From NCBI GenBank assembly GCA_030619985.1, contig JAUXAI010000041.1:1-11178 (forward strand): a DNA stretch of 11,178 bases, written 5' to 3'. The position numbers were made by a program, and so were the translations under genes. The notes beneath the pieces are model-generated. The model worked only from the letters and a program-made list of their open reading frames with translations. It was not told where the DNA came from and made no database searches. Every line of letters begins with the position of its first letter. Within the stretch, counting starts at the first letter, position 1. The DNA is from a bacterium (lineage in GTDB: Bacteria; UBP18; UBA7526). Positions 2,149-9,693 of the stretch are shown here, one piece after another.

Positions 2149-2164
2149 TTTACTCCTCTTTAGA

Positions 2165-2209
2165 CACAGATGATCACAGATTTTTTACAGATATTCACAG
2201 ATTACAGAT
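2165..2209 (-). promoter_or_regulatory. Array of five [C/T]ACAGAT direct repeats (starts 2165, 2175, 2186, 2196, 2203; 10-11 bp phasing) immediately upstream of lptE; read in gene orientation = ATCTGTG/ATCTGTA
   Basis: Read directly. The copy nearest the gene runs into ATCTGTGTCTAAAGAGGAGtaaaATG, the same RBS-adjacent element seen at two other genes (see findings). Confidence 0.5.
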
Positions 2210-2453
2210 CGAATTCGGAAAACTAAAAGCTTGTGAAATAACCAAACACCAAGAGACAAGATACAAACAAACATCAATCACTAAATAACCAATGACCAAA
2301 ACAACTTGTCTTTATCAAATCTGGCGAAGCCAGAAAAGTTTGGTTATTTGAATTTGGATATTGTATATTGTCTGATTATTGTTTCTTGTATCTTGTGTCT
2401 TATTCTCTTACTTTCTCATTCTCTTACTTTTCTTCTTTCCTACTCTCCTACTT

Positions 2454-5066
2454 TTATTTGGTGACAATATTTACCAATTTCTTAGGGACAACGACCACTC
2501 TTTTGATTCCCTTTCCCGAAATAAACTTCCTTACCTTTTCATCAGATAGGGCCTTCTCTTTTATCTCCTCACCACTTGAATCTATAGGAACCTTTATTCT
2601 GCTTCGGAGTTTTCCATCTACTTGAATGACGATTAGAATCTCCTTTTCTATAATTGCTTTTGGATTATAGGTTGGCCAATCCTTTTGGCCGATACTCGGT
2701 TTATTGCCTAAGATCTCCCAGAGTTCTTCACAGATATGGGGAGCGAAGGGAGAGAGTAATAGCACCACGGTTTCGATGGCTTCTTCTATTGTCTGCCTGT
2801 CTGCCCGTCTACCTGTCTGCCTGTCTTTATCTTTTGACTGGCTGACTGGCTGACTGGCTGACTGGCTGACTACTGAGTGAATGGCATTGACCAGTTCCAT
2901 AATGGCAGAGATGGCGGTATTGAAATGGAACCTCTTCTCAATATCCTCAGTCACCTTCTTAATTGTTTTATGGGTAATCCTTTTTAACTCAGTTTCGGGT
3001 TTCGGGTTTCGGGTTTCGGGTTTACCTTGTAAATTAGAAATTGCCCGCCCCGCTTTGCTTGGCGAGGCCGGGGGAAATTGGAAATTAAAATCATTAATTA
3101 ATCTCCATACCCTATTCAAGAACCTAAACGACCCTTCTACCCCTTCCGCGCTCCATTCTAAGTCTTTCTCTGGAGGAGAGGCAAAGAGGATGAAGAGCCG
3201 GGCGGTATCTGCACCATATTTATTCGTTATTTCATCGACAGAAACCACATTTCCTTTTGATTTGGACATCTTGGCCCCATCCTTTACCACCATTCCCTGA
3301 CAGAATAGTTTCTTAAAGGGCTCATCAATCTTATATAATCCTATGTCTCTCAAGGCCTTGGTGAAGAATCGAGCATACAAAAGATGCATGATGGCATGCT
3401 CTATTCCCCCAATATATTGATCAACGGGCATCCAGTAATCTATTCTCTTTTCATCAAAAGGTTTTTTGGTATAATCCGGGCTACAGTATCTGGAGAAGTA
3501 CCAAGAGGAGTCGACGAAGGTATCCATGGTATCCGTCTCTCTTCTTGCTTTCCCCTTACACTTAGGACATCTGCAATTTACAAATTCTCGACATTCTTCT
3601 AAGGGGTTACCCTTTCCGGTAAATTTAATGTCCTTCGGTAACTCTACTGGCAGGTTCTTTTCTGGAACAGGAACTACTCCGCACTTCTCACAGTAGATGA
3701 TGGGAATGGGGGTCCCCCAGTATCTCTGTCGAGATATGAGCCAGTCGCGCAACTTATACTGAACCGTCTTCTTTCCCCATCCCTTCTCTTCTAGGTAGGT
3801 GGTAATCTTCCCTTTGGCCTCTTCTGAGTTTAGGCCAGTGAATTGAGCAGAATTCATCATTATTCCTGGATTAACATAGGCCTCCTTTAAATCGGTGCTC
3901 AGTGGTCGCCCCGACGAGCGCGGAGAAGAAGGGTCGGGGTCTCCGCTTCGCTCCGAGAGTTCGGAGTTCGGGGGCATGATAACTTGTTTGATGGGGATAT
4001 TGTATTTTTTGGCGAACTCGAAGTCCCTCTGGTCATGGGCGGGAACGGCCATGATAATCCCTGTACCATATTCTAAGAGAACGAAGTTAGCCACATAGAT
4101 GGGGACCTCCTCATTGGTTAAGGGATTGATGGCGTACCTACCGATGAAGACCCCTTCCTTCTCCTTATCCTCTGCCGTTCTGGTAAATCGATCCTCCAGG
4201 ATTACTCTATTTATAAATTCCTTGACTTCTTTCTCATACTTTGTGCCCTCAACTAATTCTAAAGCCAAAGGATGTTCACAGGCCATGGTCATGAAGGTTA
4301 CGCCGTATAAAGTATCCGGCCGGGTAGTGAAGATAGGGAGGGTCTTGTCGCTATCTTTGAGTTTGAAGTTGACCAAAGTTCCAGTTGACTTTCCGATCCA
4401 GTTCTCTTGCATTAGTTTCACCCTCTCCGGCCATCCTTCTAACTTTTTTAAATCTCTTAATAATTCCTTAGCATATTCTGTAATCTTGAGGAACCACTGT
4501 TCCAGATCCTTTATCTCAACCCTTGATTCACATCTCCAGCACTTTCCATCTTCAACCTGCTCATTGGCCAGAACGGTCTGACATTTAGGACACCAGTTGA
4601 TGGGCGCCTTCTTCTTATAGGCCAACCCCCTCTCATAGAACTTCAAGAAGATCCACTGGTTCCATCTATAATAGTCTGGCTGAGAGGTAATGACCAGTCT
4701 ATTCCAGTCATAGGATAATCCCATCTTCTCCTGCTGCTTCCTCATATCAGAGATGCATTTTCTCGTCCATTCTGCAGGATGGGTCTTATTCTGCATGGCA
4801 GCATTCTCTGCGGGAAGGCCGAAGGAATCATAGCCCATGGGATATAATACATTATATCCCCTCATCCTCAAGAAGCGAGTTAGGGTATCGCCAACCACAT
4901 AGTTTCTCATATGGCCCATATGGAGCTTTCCAGATGGGTAAGGAAACATCTCTAAAAGATAGTACTTTTTCTTCTCAGGGTCTTCCTTGACTTTGAACTG
5001 GCTCTTCTTTCCCCAGTAATCCTGCCATTTTTTTTCAATCTTTCGGAAAGGATAGTATCTTCCCAT
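2454..5066 (-). CDS. leuS: Leucyl-tRNA synthetase (class I aaRS), with low-complexity insertions
   Basis: HIGH-type motif (…PYPSGKLHMGHMRNY…) and KMSKS motif (…DGAKMSKSKGNVV…). N-terminus …YYPFRKIEKKWQDYW… and the editing/CP1 and C-terminal regions match bacterial LeuRS. The ORF-track start at 5117 (MQKGL…) would sit inside the predicted -35 box. ATG at 5066 (MGRYYPF…) is preceded by GGAGG with a 5-nt spacer. ATG 5078 is a less likely alternative. Confidence 0.95.
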   Translation of the reverse strand: MGRYYPFRKIEKKWQDYWGKKSQFKVKEDPEKKKYYLLEMFPYPSGKLHMGHMRNYVVGDTLTRFLRMRGYNVLYPMGYDSFGLPAENAAMQNKTHPAEWTRKCISDMRKQQEKMGLSYDWNRLVITSQPDYYRWNQWIFLKFYERGLAYKKKAPINWCPKCQTVLANEQVEDGKCWRCESRVEIKDLEQWFLKITEYAKELLRDLKKLEGWPERVKLMQENWIGKSTGTLVNFKLKDSDKTLPIFTTRPDTLYGVTFMTMACEHPLALELVEGTKYEKEVKEFINRVILEDRFTRTAEDKEKEGVFIGRYAINPLTNEEVPIYVANFVLLEYGTGIIMAVPAHDQRDFEFAKKYNIPIKQVIMPPNSELSERSGDPDPSSPRSSGRPLSTDLKEAYVNPGIMMNSAQFTGLNSEEAKGKITTYLEEKGWGKKTVQYKLRDWLISRQRYWGTPIPIIYCEKCGVVPVPEKNLPVELPKDIKFTGKGNPLEECREFVNCRCPKCKGKARRETDTMDTFVDSSWYFSRYCSPDYTKKPFDEKRIDYWMPVDQYIGGIEHAIMHLLYARFFTKALRDIGLYKIDEPFKKLFCQGMVVKDGAKMSKSKGNVVSVDEITNKYGADTARLFILFASPPEKDLEWSAEGVEGSFRFLNRVWRLINDFNFQFPPASPSKAGRAISNLQGKPETRNPKPETELKRITHKTIKKVTEDIEKRFHFNTAISAIMELVNAIHSVVSQSASQPVSQSKDKDRQTGRRADRQTIEEAIETVVLLLSPFAPHICEELWEILGNKPSIGQKDWPTYNPKAIIEKEILIVIQVDGKLRSRIKVPIDSSGEEIKEKALSDEKVRKFISGKGIKRVVVVPKKLVNIVTK
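2790..2872. repeat. Two adjacent octamer microsatellites inside the leuS ORF: (TGTCTGCC)x5 (two imperfect) at 2790-2827 and (GACTGGCT)x4.5 at 2836-2872
   Basis: Read directly. Translated in frame as …SQSASQPVSQSKDKDRQTGRRADRQT…, an insertion relative to the usual LeuRS segment just before the conserved …LLSPF.PHI… C-terminal region. Confidence 0.85.
2992..3023. repeat. Heptamer microsatellite (GTTTCGG)x4 + partial inside the leuS ORF
   Basis: Read directly. Encodes …GKPETRNPKPETEL…, part of a ~20-aa low-complexity insertion (QFPPASPSKAGRAISNLQGKPETRNPKPETE) in the anticodon-binding region ahead of …HKTIKKVTEDI…. Confidence 0.85.
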
Positions 5067-5088
5067 TCTCGCCTCCATTAATTTGATT

Positions 5089-5117
5089 AGTATAGCATAA
5101 ATAAGACCTTTTTGCAA
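5089..5117 (-). promoter_or_regulatory. Sigma70-type promoter for leuS: -35 TTGCAA (5112-5117), 17-nt spacer, -10 TATACT (complement of 5089-5094)
   Basis: Hexamers and spacing read directly. Predicted TSS ~7 nt downstream gives a ~15-nt leader carrying GGAGG before ATG 5066. The -35 is fused to the conserved element …GCAAGCCCCGTTA (5114-5126). Confidence 0.5.
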
Positions 5118-5231
5118 GCCCCGTTAGAAAATTCTTTAGCTAAGGTGATATTTGCTATTTAAATGCAATCATTCTCTTAAAACGCAGTATTTAGAGAATG
5201 TGTCTATTAAGATTTCTAAAGGGGCAAGTTT

Positions 5232-5265
5232 TAAAAAAAGAGCCACTAAACAAGTTAGCGGCTCT
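5232..5265 (-). terminator. Rho-independent terminator downstream of bioY (minus strand): stem AGAGCCGCTAAC / GTTTAGTGGCTCT (one mismatch), loop ~CTT, followed by TTTTTTT
   Basis: Read directly. Plus strand shows the A7 run at 5233-5239, then AGAGCCACTAAAcaaGTTAGCGGCTCT at 5239-5265. Lies 29 nt after the bioY stop (5294). Confidence 0.6.
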
Positions 5266-5948: not shown

Positions 5949-6746
5949 TTAATTTTTAATACTGAAATAATAAGCGCAGGCGAGATAGGCTAAATAGTCT
6001 GGGGTGGCCTGGTTCAATCTCGTGCCCAGAGAGGCCTTCATGCCGAAGGAAGGAGTGAAGCCATATTTGAATCCTCCATAGAGATCCAAAGTATTCTCCT
6101 TCACTGTAAGATGGGGTTCCTTATAGTTTGTCTTCCCCACTAACTCCAGGACCAATGAGACCGACTTTACAGGGTAGACATAGGCCGCCCCATAACTCAC
6201 CTGGTTAGAATATATCTTATCATCTGGTTCACCAACATACTTATAGCCTAGATTGAGATTGAGTTGCCCTCCAATTAGGTCTTTACTCACAATGAGATAG
6301 AGCGCATGATCAACCTCTCCTGTAGTCAGACCCTTGCTATCCGTATTAGTAGGGATTTTCAGAGAATACTTTGCTGCTAAGGATGGTAGATTATCCCTTT
6401 CCTCTGAGAATTGATACTTAAGCCCGCAGACAACATCCCCAAAGTCATGGTCGCTACCACTGTTATCCCTTCCCCATATGGCATCATGCACCTCAGGGGC
6501 AATGACCGCCTCTAAATGATCCGTTATCCCATAGGCTAAAGCAAGCCAGATGGAGGTGGTATAATAGCCAGGTGAGCCACTATAGACCACCTTGGGAATG
6601 GTGAGCTCGAATGTCCCCTTGGGTTCTGTTCCTGCATCATCCAAGACCACTCCCGCACCATACTTTGTGTGGCGTGCTTCTACTTTGGTAGAGAATCCCA
6701 AGATTAATGAACCCATTAAACCCAAAAATATCAAACAATTCCTCAT
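5949..6746 (-). CDS. Secreted protein with signal peptide; putative outer-membrane beta-barrel (Phenol_MetA_deg/transporter-like fold suspected)
   Basis: 265 aa. N-terminal signal peptide (MRNCLIFLGLMGSLILGFSTKVEA). Body rich in alternating aromatic/small residues and Gly/Tyr (…LNLNLGYKYVG…, …YGAAYVYPVKSVSLVLELVG…, …LDLYGGFKYGF…), typical of amphipathic beta-strands. SD AGGAGG lies 6 nt upstream of ATG 6746. That ATG overlaps the stop of the upstream gene (ATGA). Family assignment is a guess. Confidence 0.5.
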   Translation of the reverse strand: MRNCLIFLGLMGSLILGFSTKVEARHTKYGAGVVLDDAGTEPKGTFELTIPKVVYSGSPGYYTTSIWLALAYGITDHLEAVIAPEVHDAIWGRDNSGSDHDFGDVVCGLKYQFSEERDNLPSLAAKYSLKIPTNTDSKGLTTGEVDHALYLIVSKDLIGGQLNLNLGYKYVGEPDDKIYSNQVSYGAAYVYPVKSVSLVLELVGKTNYKEPHLTVKENTLDLYGGFKYGFTPSFGMKASLGTRLNQATPDYLAYLACAYYFSIKN

Positions 6747-7306: not shown

Positions 7307-7382
<76 letters not shown>

Positions 7383-7424: not shown

Positions 7425-7498
7425 TTATCCATAATTATCCGTGTATTTAATCCTAAATAGTGAGCAGAACAAAGAAATCCGTGTCTAAGGAGGAAAAA

Positions 7499-8488
7499 AT
7501 GGAATATCCGAGAAGAGAGACGCTGAGGATGGAGGACTTACTGCGTATGGCTCCCAGAGAAGGGGGAAGGATAAACCCGGTAGCCACGATACTCTTCATT
7601 ATTATTGCCGGGATAGGAATAGGATTGAGTTCCTACTTCCAAAACTTTATCTGGGGAATCCCCTTCTTTCTACTTGCTTTCTTGGTGGGAGCAGCACTGA
7701 AGATCGCCTCCCAGTGGGAGAGGGTAATTATCTTAAAATTGGGGAAGTTCCATCGCATGAAAGGCCCGGGACTATTCTGGGTTATTCCCATTATAGAAAG
7801 CATCCCCTACTGGATAGATATCAGGGTCTGGGCTACGGATATCAGGGCAGAACAGACTCTCACCAAAGATAATGTTCCAGTGGATGTGGATGCCATTGTA
7901 TTCTGGAAGGTCTTCGATCCCGAGAAGGCTGCTTTAGAGGTAGAGAACTATAGGGCAGCCATCTCCCTGGCCTCCCAGACCGCTTTGAGGGATACTATAG
8001 GAAAGACCTCACTCTCTGAGATGCTCGTGGGAAGGGAAAGATTGGATGTTGACCTCAAGAAGAGGATTGATGATCGGAGTGATCCCTGGGGGATCTCGGT
8101 TCAGTCTGTGGAGATCAGGGAGGTATTAATTCCTCAGGCACTACAGAAGGCCATGTCCATGCAGGCCCAGGCAGAGAGGGAGAAGCAGGCCCGGGTTCTC
8201 CTGGGTGAATCAGAGAAGTTAATCGCCGGCAAGTTTGAAGAAGCGGCAAAGACTTATGCCAACAACCCCACTGCTTTACATCTCAGGGCTATGAATATGC
8301 TCTATGAAGGATTGAAGGAGAAGGCCACCATCTTGATCGTTCCCTCTACGGCAGTAGATACCATGAATATAGGTGCTTTTGCGGGATTGACCGCCCTGGC
8401 CAAGATAACAACAAAGGAGATGGAGACCGAAGAGAAGAAGGAGAAGGAAAAAGAGAAAGAGCCACCGCCAAAGGCGGGAAAAAAGTAA
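7499..8488 (+). CDS. SPFH/band-7 (stomatin/prohibitin-like) membrane protein
   Basis: N-terminal hydrophobic anchor (…ILFIIIAGIGIGLSS…FFLLAFLVGAAL…) followed by an SPFH core (…WERVIILKLGKF…GPGLFWVIPIIE…VDVDAIVFWKV.DP…), then a coiled-coil region and a charged KE-rich tail. The track start 7460 is GTG. ATG 7499 has a strong SD, AAGGAGG with a 5-nt spacer. No NfeD partner gene is adjacent. Confidence 0.85.
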   Translation: MEYPRRETLRMEDLLRMAPREGGRINPVATILFIIIAGIGIGLSSYFQNFIWGIPFFLLAFLVGAALKIASQWERVIILKLGKFHRMKGPGLFWVIPIIESIPYWIDIRVWATDIRAEQTLTKDNVPVDVDAIVFWKVFDPEKAALEVENYRAAISLASQTALRDTIGKTSLSEMLVGRERLDVDLKKRIDDRSDPWGISVQSVEIREVLIPQALQKAMSMQAQAEREKQARVLLGESEKLIAGKFEEAAKTYANNPTALHLRAMNMLYEGLKEKATILIVPSTAVDTMNIGAFAGLTALAKITTKEMETEEKKEKEKEKEPPPKAGKK

Positions 8489-9563: not shown

Positions 9564-9578
9564 AAATTATAAGCGCGC

Positions 9579-9611
9579 CTGTCCGTCCGATCGCCTCTGG
9601 CGGACGGACGG
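9579..9611. other. GC-rich perfect hairpin: C-T-GTCCGTCCG (9579-9589) / loop ATCGCCTCTGG / CGGACGGAC-G-G (9601-9611), inside the long leader of the basic-protein gene
   Basis: Read directly. 9 perfect bp, extendable to 11 with a G-U pair. Embedded in AT-rich sequence with no adjacent U-run on either strand, so not a canonical intrinsic terminator. Confidence 0.6.
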
Positions 9612-9693
9612 AAATTATTGCGAACATTATAACTGCAAAGACGCAAAATTTAATTTAAAAACGCAAAACTGAGATTCCTTGTTGCTTTATCAT

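Follow-up and report, generated by a model that had tools for sequence, protein, structure and literature searches.

Non-triplet tandem repeat arrays in predicted disordered loops of a bacterial leucyl-tRNA synthetase gene

The window, meaning the whole 11,178-nt stretch of DNA that was analysed, carries on its minus strand a gene named leuS in the initial annotation, and this identification was supported by Pfam and by PDB 1h3n. The open reading frame is listed at 2454–5117, reaching a TTG at 5117; protein sequence P0001 was 100% identical over 98% of this frame and begins with the Met codon at 5066, giving 870 aa. The translation matched the Pfam families tRNA-synt_1 (E = 9e-61), tRNA-synt_1_2, which is the editing domain (E = 2.9e-70), and Anticodon_1 (E = 4.5e-27), while T. 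thermophilus LeuRS (PDB 1h3n) gave a full-length match to the frame (E = 1e-260). The Rossmann-fold catalytic core of class Ia LeuRS was present with both of its motifs, HIGH (here HMGH, residues 49–52) and KMSKS. Across 74 LeuRS sequences, H49, M50, G51, H52, M600, K602 and S603 were invariant and S601 was at least 90% conserved. The CP1 editing domain and the alpha-helical anticodon-binding domain were found in the bacterial arrangement (Pfam, 1h3n and AlphaFold). Judged by its sequence, the gene is intact and encodes a bacterial class Ia leucyl-tRNA synthetase with conserved catalytic motifs. The closest named LeuRS sequences were from Elusimicrobiota, at ~60–63% identity. Comparison of relatives' loci showed a conserved order leuS-lptE, with leuS upstream of lptE. 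The gene and the repeats associated with it are listed here by position in the window.

2149–2453, minus strand: leuS-lptE spacer, ~305 nt, with several tandem arrays of periods 7, 8, 10 and 16 (TRF)
2454–5066, minus strand: leuS, housekeeping leucyl-tRNA synthetase, 870 aa (Pfam, PDB 1h3n, P0001)
2790–2826, minus strand: site 3, 3′ arm, octamer array (TGTCTGCC)x4.6, 86% match (TRF); sense unit GACAGGCA, two units variant; encodes ...DRQTGRRADRQT... (residues ~747–759)
2827–2834, minus strand: A-rich spacer between both octamer arrays as TRF delimits them
2835–2871, minus strand: site 3, 5′ arm, perfect octamer array (TGACTGGC)x4.6, 100% match (TRF); sense unit GTCAGCCA; encodes VSQSASQPVSQS (residues ~732–744)
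2992–3023, minus strand: site 2, heptamer array (GTTTCGG)x4.6, 100% match (TRF); sense unit AAACCCG; encodes KPETRNPKPET (residues ~682–692)
3030–3090, minus strand: site 2, second heptamer array, sense AATTTCC (by comparison with the uninterrupted AATTTCC array in L005)
3906–3971, minus strand: site 1, editing-domain loop, GC-rich insert and heptamer units (TRF, site extraction)

Arrays were called with Tandem Repeats Finder (TRF), which recovered the three tandem arrays already noted in the LeuRS frame at coordinates within 1 nt. The copy numbers first given for them (5, 4.5 and 4) were slightly off, as TRF returned 4.6 in each array. All three lie within the intact gene and keep its reading frame, and the peptides first quoted for them were correct: in-frame, low-complexity and situated in loops of which other LeuRS have shorter versions. 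When the window was simulated 2000 times with a first-order Markov model, perfect self-matches at period 7 or 8 never exceeded 14 nt, compared with 25 and 29 nt observed; a chance origin of the arrays is therefore excluded. With 4.6 copies and 86–100% match, the arrays are head-to-tail repeats of units in the 5–11-nt range and longer than chance, as expected of long SSRs and STRR-type repeats. The plus strand of the 2992–3023 array reads (GGGTTTC)n, a G3N4 quadruplex-type motif. Rfam and tRNA scans of the window returned only a tRNA-Ala (7307–7382); the arrays matched none of the known RNA families.

The initial annotation lacked the complementarity of the octamers, the third (editing-domain) site and additional heptamer arrays in which GC-rich elements are nested. 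The second array at site 2 is split into 3030–3042 and 3074–3090 by a 31-nt GC-rich insert at 3043–3073 (sense CCCCGGCCTCGCCAAGCAAAGCGGGGCGGGC, peptide PPASPSKAGRA). This GC island has a 97% identical copy in L001 (other loci are denoted by such handles), and its predicted hairpin had a folding energy of −17.5 kcal/mol (z −1.75). At site 1, a 51-nt GC-rich insert at 3906–3956, element A, encodes ...SERSGDPDPSSPRSSGR... and adjoins two units of sense AACTCCG at 3957–3971 (TRF). A 94% identical 51-nt copy of element A occurs at site 3 in L001 and L005, and identical copies of element F lie in L006 leuS and, on the opposite strand, in an intergenic spacer. Smaller elements were embedded in heptamer arrays, among them a 23-nt CCTGCCTCGCCGGCAGGCAGGCG within (AAACCCG)n of L005; elements B and E, embedded in this way, are 22–24 nt long (hairpin z −1.3 and −2.1). 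Hairpin support for the small GC-rich elements was weak overall, with z from +0.7 to −2.1, and strong hairpins in them were rejected on these values. The elements were seen in 2–3 copies within 108 kb of clade DNA. Scanning metagenomes with the 23-nt core of element A gave one match, in an unrelated gene (L130); this match was limited to the 23-mer, so no further copies were found. Dispersed copies, as in RPE- or MITE-like elements, were thus observed for the nested GC-rich inserts (A at two leuS sites, F in leuS and a spacer) and, in the 108 kb, not for the tandem arrays. The arrays of the leuS-lptE spacer show the same repeat-forming tendency in non-coding DNA; in L007 and L008 this spacer measures just 8 and 38 nt, respectively.

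The positions of the inserts were confirmed by the alignment of LeuRS orthologues (T. thermophilus, 74 sequences) that had been proposed as a check. Relative to T. thermophilus LeuRS, the insertions amount to ~8 aa at site 2 and ~15 aa at site 3, and the corresponding loops are 42 and 39 aa long, compared with medians of 30 and 22 aa in the 74 LeuRS. The AlphaFold model of the protein (mean pLDDT 87.5, pTM 0.82) fell below a pLDDT of 50 only at residues 373–376, 381–388, 668–687 and 742–753, which are the three insert sites. The array-bearing loops are thus predicted to be disordered and on the surface. Site 1 lies in the editing domain. Sites 2 and 3 are both inter-helix loops of the anticodon-binding helical bundle, which corrects an earlier placement at the C-terminal junction. 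In a census that is biased, every locus having been picked via leuS and orthologous arrays being non-independent, leuS and intergenic DNA were equal in array density (29 in 24.8 kb and 15 in 13.0 kb), and leuS had ~40 times the density of its neighbouring genes (2 in 70.4 kb). No leuS unit was found as a tandem pair outside leuS in the 108 kb of clade DNA, a small sample.

Arrays of 7 or 8 nt occurred at the same three leuS sites in all eight relatives of 84–87% amino acid identity, drawn from seven independent assemblies (NCBI, JGI and ENA), and the repeat structure was present at the nucleotide level in these sister genomes. L008, at 80% identity, had no arrays. Units and copy numbers varied among the eight, as is characteristic of long SSRs in related genomes. 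At one site, units differed between relatives by 1–2 substitutions, and AAACCGGC was present in 1.6, 3.5 or 6.5 copies depending on the relative. The L001 site-2 array has the length of that in the window, with units AAACCCA/AAACTTA. L009 carries a (AGTCAGCC)x4.6 array identical to that at 2835–2871, and at the position of 2790–2826 only 1.6 units of AAACCGGC, which leaves it 24 nt (3 units) shorter than the window. The same 24-nt, or 3-octamer, difference separates L002 and L003 from L004, while L004 and L009 differ by a compensated +16/−7 nt. The reading frame was kept in 13 of the 13 assembled leuS alleles examined. These data suggest that the purifying selection first proposed to act on copy number acts on net length. 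Recent expansion, also invoked at first, is not the whole story, as the arrays are present in all eight relatives despite divergence at 29–38% of fourfold-degenerate leuS sites.

Several loci shared repeats between sites or retained traces of an earlier state. In L003 and L004, a composite (AGTTAACC)n+(AAACCGGC)n of ~70 nt occurs at site 2 and again at site 3, ~210 nt apart. Across the loci, the AACTCCG unit is present at both sites 1 and 3. The site-3 arrays of L006 and L007 take up precisely the 60 nt that are free of repeats in L008, and L008 has the proto-repeat AAGTCCGAATTGCGG where others have (AACTCCG)n. The closest relative of the window's leuS shifts along the gene, from L006 (96%) at the 5′ end to L001/L005 at site 2 and L009 (95–96%) at site 3. 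By sequence comparison, leuS alleles are mosaic, with array states moving together with recombined segments.

The two octamer arrays of site 3 would together form an imperfect hairpin. The 2835–2871 arm was quasi-complementary to the 2790–2826 arm at six of eight unit positions; predicted folding energies were −37.3 kcal/mol for RNA and −18.1 for DNA, with AAAAGATAAA as the unpaired loop. Unit-permuted controls folded as well in 0.7% of cases for the window, 0–0.7% for L003 and 1.7% for L133. L002 and L004 had octamer pairs of marginal complementarity (7–15% of unit-permuted controls). Among the adjacent pairs tested, only those of the window, L003 and L133 were significantly complementary. 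General complementarity of neighbouring arrays was rejected, as it fails in intergenic pairs, at site 2 of L009 and L001, and in the L132 lptE pair. At unit level, the shift from L-type to W-type exchanges U-A for C-G in the two arms alike; L009, with a single arm, is without the hairpin. A separate hairpin at 9577–9612 was rejected as kin of the octamers: its arms, (GTCC)2/(GGAC)2, have only few bases in common with them, despite an initial likening of the octamers to its arm at 9579–9589, and it was followed by no T-run on either strand.

Tandem heptamers of this general kind have precedents. Mazel in 1990 and Vioque in 1997 reportedly described heptamers of cyanobacteria termed STRR, with copies in the RNase P RNA gene of heterocystous species. 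The leuS arrays resemble these STRR in that an essential gene tolerates tandem heptamers where its product varies in structure. Cyanobacterial STRR are said to comprise few genome-wide units, and rnpB is an RNA gene with no frame to preserve. Unlike the STRR hosts, the leuS-array lineage is non-cyanobacterial and uncultivated, its nearest named relatives being Elusimicrobiota. A few units at many loci of a cyanobacterial genome, which is STRR in the strict sense, is not the pattern seen in the 108 kb of clade DNA. Small dispersed repeats (SDR) of Nostoc, 21–27 nt in length and embedded in tandem heptamers, were reportedly documented by Elhai et al. in 2008 (Genome Res 18:1484, a study cited in PMC3116915). 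As with these, very small GC-rich, hairpin-capable elements interrupt heptamer arrays here; unlike the SDR, said to be high-copy with a conserved hairpin, they belong to another phylum, were seen in 2–3 copies in 108 kb and have weak structure support.

According to the Mrazek group's survey of prokaryotic genomes, as summarised in PMC4679880, no class of long SSR is more abundant than the heptanucleotides. The GGGNATC heptamer repeats of Xanthomonas and Nostoc prefer four units and include inverted pairs (PMC4692102). Prokaryotic long SSRs share with the leuS arrays head-to-tail 7-nt units, typically in ~4 copies, copy number that varies between relatives, occasional inverted pairs and abundance in intergenic DNA of the same genomes (PMC4679880, PMC4692102). 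Long SSRs are reported to be under-represented in coding regions, with non-triplet units rare there, whereas the leuS arrays occupy an essential gene at intergenic-like density. The leuS units also differ from those long SSRs in being locus-specific, lacking one dominant motif and including octamers. In Geobacter metallireducens, a family of 49 elements, each of four tandem heptanucleotides (GGACCGG), is one multicopy sequence with a proposed regulatory role (PMC2700814), whereas leuS has many units, each at one site in the sampled DNA. Rickettsia palindromic elements (RPEs) and other MITEs insert in frame into ORFs (PMC10969869). The likeness to RPEs, in-frame selfish repeats at permissive positions of housekeeping proteins, is closest for the GC-rich elements A, C and F; RPEs are ~150 bp, with defined families and a conserved peptide (PMC10969869), whereas the leuS inserts span 22–51 nt and tandem arrays are the dominant feature. 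The leuS arrays belong with the LSSR/STRR-type repeats; they occupy permissive loops and are filtered by the reading frame, a neat case but one with precedents.

The arrays are probably genuine, inherited non-triplet SSRs that grew by slippage in disordered LeuRS loops, were filtered by frame and encode passenger peptides. Replication slippage and intra-array conversion would make them grow, shrink and homogenise, sometimes from a seed of proto-repeats in the ancestral loop. Selection on the essential gene would purge net lengths that are not multiples of 3, as well as units that introduce a stop codon, whichever of the three frames it falls in. Sense units rich in A+C may be favoured for encoding polar, disorder-compatible residues. 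The peptides would be tolerated passengers with no role in aminoacylation, and we infer an absence of function for peptides and hairpin alike. The octamer quasi-palindrome was probably made and kept complementary by strand-switch (quasi-palindrome) templating, and the nested small GC-rich inserts may constitute a separate layer of dispersed mini-elements.

The point made at the outset that a one-unit slip would shift the frame holds, and in leuS, an essential single-copy gene, such a slip should be lethal. Ordinary slippage therefore hardly accounts for growth from <2 to >4 units, since misalignment by three units presupposes an array of three or more. The route across this gap is a puzzle; an array might have passed through polyploid intermediates, gained several units in one event or been imported. 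The shared composite at sites 2 and 3 of L003/L004, and AACTCCG at sites 1 and 3, mean that inter-site copying is needed besides local slippage. The locus may be seen as a natural experiment in the coexistence of selfish or slippage-prone DNA with an essential gene. The reading frame would act as a sieve passing only three-unit steps or compensated indels, the disordered loops would be the sole safe harbours, and recombination would shuffle the alleles.

In an alternative view, small non-autonomous mobile elements (hairpin/REPIN-, MITE- or SDR-like) would have been inserted ready-made in frame and would account for the arrays, or at any rate for the paired-octamer composite, in place of local growth by slippage. 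This is unlikely, yet deserves consideration: the composite recurs at two sites in L003/L004, arm complementarity is significant in three loci, both arms changed together from L-type to W-type, and elements A and F are dispersed at different sites. Against this, leuS units had no tandem pairs outside leuS in the 108 kb of clade DNA, the metagenome scan with the element A core gave no further copies, and the 1–2 substitutions between relatives' units at one site are as expected for descent in place. L009 has a single arm, and neighbouring intergenic arrays are non-complementary. No terminal repeats were identified, the paired octamer arrays themselves acting as imperfect inverted arms, and no target-site duplications were recognised at the arrays, whose flanks are repeats themselves.

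It is very unlikely that the repeats are functional, with the mRNA or DNA hairpin and the G-rich antisense tract regulating leuS or the peptides forming a new interaction surface. The strength of the predicted RNA hairpin, the (GGGTTTC)4 motif on the template strand and the retention of arrays at the same loops across lineages agree with such a role, but close relatives vary in units, peptides and lengths, the peptides are not conserved and their loops are predicted to be disordered. Moreover, L009 dispenses with the hairpin, and L008 and most LeuRS with the inserts. Still less credible is a phase-variable (contingency) locus or a decaying copy whose function is supplied by a second leuS. Phase variation classically relies on non-triplet repeats within an ORF, but every allele from the independent assemblies was in frame, catalytic motifs are intact, the leuS-lptE context is canonical and copy numbers are low (4.6). 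Coexisting in- and out-of-frame alleles of a dispensable gene, which define contingency loci, were not seen among the 13 assembled alleles. An assembly artefact was among the options first raised, and the metagenomic origin of the window, together with the proneness of repeats to mis-assembly, speaks for one. An assembly or sequencing artefact can nevertheless hardly be entertained, as the arrays (32–37 nt) are below sequencing-read length, one site-3 array is identical in L009 from a different assembly, and homologous arrays share these sites in seven other, independent assemblies.

Beyond this clade, the same loops bear heptamer arrays in two Elusimicrobiota genomes (L131, L132) and in the unclassified L133. 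It is conceivable, though rather improbable, that a dedicated lineage-wide process writes 7/8-nt arrays of ~4.6 copies and their inverted partners in single multi-unit events, even in essential genes, with LeuRS loops as recurrent landing sites across several phyla and the U-A to C-G change reflecting a hairpin requirement. Such array writing might proceed by reiterative strand-switch synthesis, or through a tiny element that forms a hairpin with tandem-repeat arms. Non-triplet microsatellites are, in any case, not restricted to contingency genes or intergenic DNA. Loops bearing them enlarge and diversify protein lengths in metagenome-assembled genomes and can confuse orthology and alignment; they would also serve as strain-level markers. 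A scan for (AACTCCG)x3 across 185,579 species-representative genomes, in which the window's clade was not recovered, found this tandem heptamer at >120 loci in Cyanobacteria, Verrucomicrobiota, Omnitrophota, Planctomycetota, Acidobacteriota and others. Among 131 sampled (AACTCCG)n arrays from diverse phyla, 54 lay within stop-free spans of at least 200 codons. The lengths of these arrays peaked at 30–33 nt, which fits a seed of ~1.5 units plus three.

Three tandem arrays lie within an open reading frame (ORF) on the minus strand at 2454-5117, which is a complete bacterial LeuRS. Its Pfam domains are the class I core, the editing domain of LeuRS (E 2.9e-70) and the anticodon-binding domain, and T. 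thermophilus LeuRS (1h3n) aligned with the ORF from end to end (E 1e-260). HMGH and KMSKS are present, and are conserved over 74 sequences. P0001, the database copy of the protein, matches 98% of the ORF at 100% identity and starts at the Met codon at 5066, giving 870 aa. The leucine-specific domain of T. thermophilus, ~56 residues long, is absent at ~3220-3230 (residues ~595-598), as it is in relatives; in the alignment, ORF residues 612-615 span 1h3n residues 579-636, where this domain would be.

Tandem arrays and GC-rich inserts in leuS
2790-2826, octamer array, unit TGTCTGCC, period 8, 4.6 copies, 86% match (TRF)
2835-2871, octamer array, unit TGACTGGC, period 8, 4.6 copies, 100% match (TRF)
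2992-3023, heptamer array, unit GTTTCGG, period 7, 4.6 copies, 100% match (TRF)
3030-3042 and 3074-3090, minus strand, second heptamer array of site 2, unit AATTTCC (sense)
3043-3073, site 2, GC-rich insert of 31 nt splitting the AATTTCC array
3906-3956, site 1, GC-rich insert of 51 nt adjoining two AACTCCG units

The three TRF arrays are also visible by direct reading of the sequence. When the window was simulated 2000 times with a first-order Markov model, perfect self-matches at period 7 or 8 reached 14 nt at most, compared with observed runs of 25 and 29 nt. The tandem arrays of the initial annotation, which had missed the AATTTCC array and the GC-rich inserts, are confirmed, and their copy numbers need only trivial correction.

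A protein search returned a tight group of LeuRS relatives, 817 to 895 aa long, with aligned amino-acid identities to the window LeuRS of 84-87%. DNA from nine relatives (L001-L009; NCBI, JGI and ENA assemblies) was compared, and 7- or 8-nt tandem arrays were found inside leuS in eight of them (L001-L007 and L009). The leuS of L008, the most distant of the nine (80% amino-acid and 76% nucleotide identity), was without such arrays. Segments cut out between conserved anchors defined three insert sites. Site 1, in the editing domain, carried units of ACCGATC, ACCGTTC, CTCAAAA, CAGATAT or AACTCCG. Units at site 2 were GCCACAA, CAGGCCA, AATTTCC, AAACCCG, a 10-nt unit, or the octamer pair AGTTAACC and AAACCGGC, and those at site 3 were AACTCCG, CACAGTT, or the octamer pairs AGTTAACC with AAACCGGC and AGTCAGCC with GACAGGCA. 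An assembly artefact, which had been offered as one explanation, can be excluded for practical purposes, since the perfect (AGTCAGCC)x4.6 array of the window is identical in L009, from another assembly, all leuS alleles are intact ORFs, and the window arrays, at 32-37 nt, are shorter than a sequencing read.

The structural context of the inserts was examined in an AlphaFold model of LeuRS built from a 74-sequence alignment (mean pLDDT 87.5, pTM 0.82). The only segments with pLDDT below 50 were residues 373-376 and 381-388 (site 1), 668-687 (site 2) and 742-753 (site 3). Site 2 was modelled as a coil between helices 640-663 and 690-712, and site 3 as a coil between helices 715-737 and 755-771; the arrays fall at residues ~682-692, ~732-744 and ~747-759. 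Median loop lengths over the 74 LeuRS sequences were 13, 30 and 22 aa for sites 1, 2 and 3, against 31, 42 and 39 aa in the window, in agreement with the initial view that these loops are shorter in other LeuRS. The anticodon is not known to be read by bacterial LeuRS, which would fit permissive loops in the anticodon-binding domain.

The arrays substitute for loop sequence besides lengthening the loops. At site 3, (AACTCCG)x5.3 of L006 and (CACAGTT)x5 of L007 fill exactly the 60 nt that are repeat-free in L008. Where the others have AACTCCGAACTCCGA (NSELR), L008 has AAGTCCGAATTGCGG (KSELR), plausibly a two-unit proto-repeat. Two Elusimicrobiota loci (L131 and L132, about 65% identity) also have heptamer arrays in these loops, without a net gain in loop length, and one unit is common to sites 1 and 3 of L131. 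Between relatives, array units differ by identical one or two substitutions in every unit, with intermediates present, as for AGTTAACC and AGTCAGCC; within an array, the units evolve in concert. Fourfold-degenerate sites differ by 29-38% between the window and its relatives (56% for L008), and despite this divergence the window is identical to L009 over 57 nt around the site-3 array. Sliding-window comparison showed leuS to be a mosaic, with L006 the nearest relative at the 5′ end (96%), L003/L004 in the middle, L001/L005 at site 2 and L009 at site 3 (95-96%). Such mosaics in the clade indicate frequent homologous recombination, which therefore carries loop alleles between lineages and accounts for the arrays that relatives have in common.

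Neither 7 nor 8 is divisible by 3, so every unit comes to be translated in all three frames, and the resulting peptides have periods of 7 or 8 residues (e.g. KPETRNP, VSQSASQP). Only stop-free units can survive. On the sense strand, as direct reading of the extracted sites showed, the units are rich in A and C, and the residues they encode are polar. The site-3 difference between L002 or L003 and L004 is 24 nt (6.5 versus 3.5 copies of AAACCGGC), as is that between the window and L009 (4.6 copies of GACAGGCA versus 1.6 of AAACCGGC). Relative to L009, the L004 array has gained 16 nt (two units) and the adjacent spacer has lost 7 nt, a net change of +9 nt. Lengths have therefore changed both in steps of three units and in out-of-frame steps that were compensated locally. 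The leuS arrays cluster at 4.5-4.7 copies, which corresponds to about 1.5 units plus three more; intergenic arrays of these loci have between 3.3 and 7.9 copies.

A further property, overlooked initially, is that the (GUCAGCCA)n and (GACAGGCA)n arrays are quasi-complementary, forming 3-bp helices with A·A mismatches between them. The octamer pair is predicted to fold at -37.3 kcal/mol (RNA) or -18.1 kcal/mol (DNA), with z about -10 to -12 versus shuffles. As a control, the positions inside the unit of one arm were permuted, which kept composition and periodicity. These controls folded as well as the window pair in just 0.7% of cases, and as well as the homologous pairs of L003 in 0-0.7%. Complementarity was marginal for L002 and L004, L009 lacks the second arm, and none was found by the same control in adjacent intergenic arrays. 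An unrelated heptamer pair at site 2 of L133, from an unclassified lineage, was complementary too (1.7% of controls as good). From the AGTTAACC/AAACCGGC type to the window type, GUU:AAC becomes GUC:GAC, a change in both arms that represents a single event only.

The GC-rich inserts appear in more than one place. The 51-nt element recurs at site 3 of L001 and L005 (94% identical), a 37-nt element has identical copies in site 2 of L006 leuS and, on the opposite strand, in an intergenic spacer, and a 23-nt element breaks up heptamer arrays at site 1 of L001 and site 2 of L005. Their predicted hairpins are weakly better than shuffles. The unrelated L133 carries, at 4107-4196 and 5151-5240 in leuS sites 1 and 3, a GC-rich palindromic element, CCCCCCCTTTAGAAAAGGGGGGATGGGGGGAT, that differs from the clade's inserts. 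It encodes PPLEKGGWG, a peptide also present in site 1 of a Nitrospinota LeuRS (P0107). The same loops therefore take different selfish elements in different phyla.

Arrays of period 7 or 8 with at least three copies, counted over ten clade loci, numbered 29 in 24.8 kb of leuS, 2 in 70.4 kb of other genes and 15 in 13.0 kb of intergenic DNA, counts that are descriptive only because the loci were chosen via leuS and orthologous arrays are not independent. Elsewhere in these loci, which cover 108 kb, no leuS unit was found in tandem. The spacer between leuS and lptE contains several arrays of its own.

Tandem arrays in the leuS-lptE spacer (TRF)
2149-2453, whole spacer, about 305 nt
2165-2204, period 10-11
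2379-2401, period 7
2398-2430, period 16
2420-2452, period 8

The corresponding spacer measures only 8 nt in L007 and 38 nt in L008; in the window it has therefore lengthened through the accretion of repeats. Heptamer or octamer arrays also lie in L132 at 6525-6607, 11573-11611, 12405-12429 and 14469-14505, near the 5′ ends of lptE and of SLT-domain, DNA_binding_1-domain (PF01035) and RCC1-repeat genes; coding arrays in that Elusimicrobiota genome are therefore not limited to leuS. A scan of 185,579 species-representative genomes for (AACTCCG)x3 returned at least 120 stretches from many phyla (L010-L129). Among the matches listed, 54 of 131 (AACTCCG)n arrays (about 41%) sit within stretches of 200 or more codons that lack a stop, and array lengths peak at 30-33 nt. 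In-frame heptamer arrays within genes are therefore widespread, though seldom discussed.

The core reading of the initial annotation was right, and the finding is real. Quite probably, slippage-type 7- and 8-nt arrays, with a few tiny dispersed GC-rich inserts, occupy three disordered LeuRS loops: arrays would change by slippage-type events within these loops, the reading frame and stop-codon avoidance would sieve the variants, and recombination would shuffle the surviving loop alleles. The puzzle raised is how such arrays could arise and become homogeneous in an essential gene while avoiding lethal frameshift intermediates, and the paired complementary arrays may point to a strand-switch or hairpin-element mechanism. 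STRR heptamers exist in cyanobacteria, also within rnpB, and Nostoc SDR elements were reportedly found by Elhai in 2008 to be nested in heptamer arrays. The leuS arrays work like these two systems and also like long SSRs and Rickettsia palindromic elements. According to a summary of an earlier prokaryotic SSR survey, many bacteria have heptanucleotides as their most abundant class of long SSR, and coding regions are said to contain non-triplet units only rarely (PMC4679880). Housekeeping genes take in-frame insertions of Rickettsia palindromic elements (PMC10969869). The leuS case is not a new kind of system; the host and gene are new, and the frame filter is unusually clear.

Other features of the window were noted. 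On the plus strand, the leuS template strand, 2992-3023 reads (GGGTTTC)n, with four G3 tracts and 4-nt loops, a canonical G-quadruplex sequence motif that resembles in type the GGGNATC repeats of Xanthomonas and Nostoc. The GC-rich hairpin GCCTGTCCGTCCGATCGCC/GGCGGACGGACGG at 9577-9612, in an AT-rich spacer, has arms with (GTCC)2/(GGAC)2 and bears no sequence relation to the octamers, to which it had been likened. Since a T-run is missing downstream of it on both strands, the hairpin does not qualify as a typical intrinsic terminator. At its 3′ end, the SPFH/Band_7 gene (7460-8488) has an imperfect hexamer array, (AAGGAG)x8 at 8414-8461, that gives the protein a KE-rich tail (...EEKKEKEKEKEPPPKAGKK); the protein is 342 aa long, compared with 325-328 aa in L001 and L007. 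Between this gene and a DUF1284 gene lies a plus-strand tRNA-Ala (GGC) at 7307-7382. An amino-acid permease gene on the minus strand extends past the left end of the window, and a 15-nt x2.3 / (AGTT)n array at 1461-1494 lies in open frame either at the start of this gene or immediately upstream of it.
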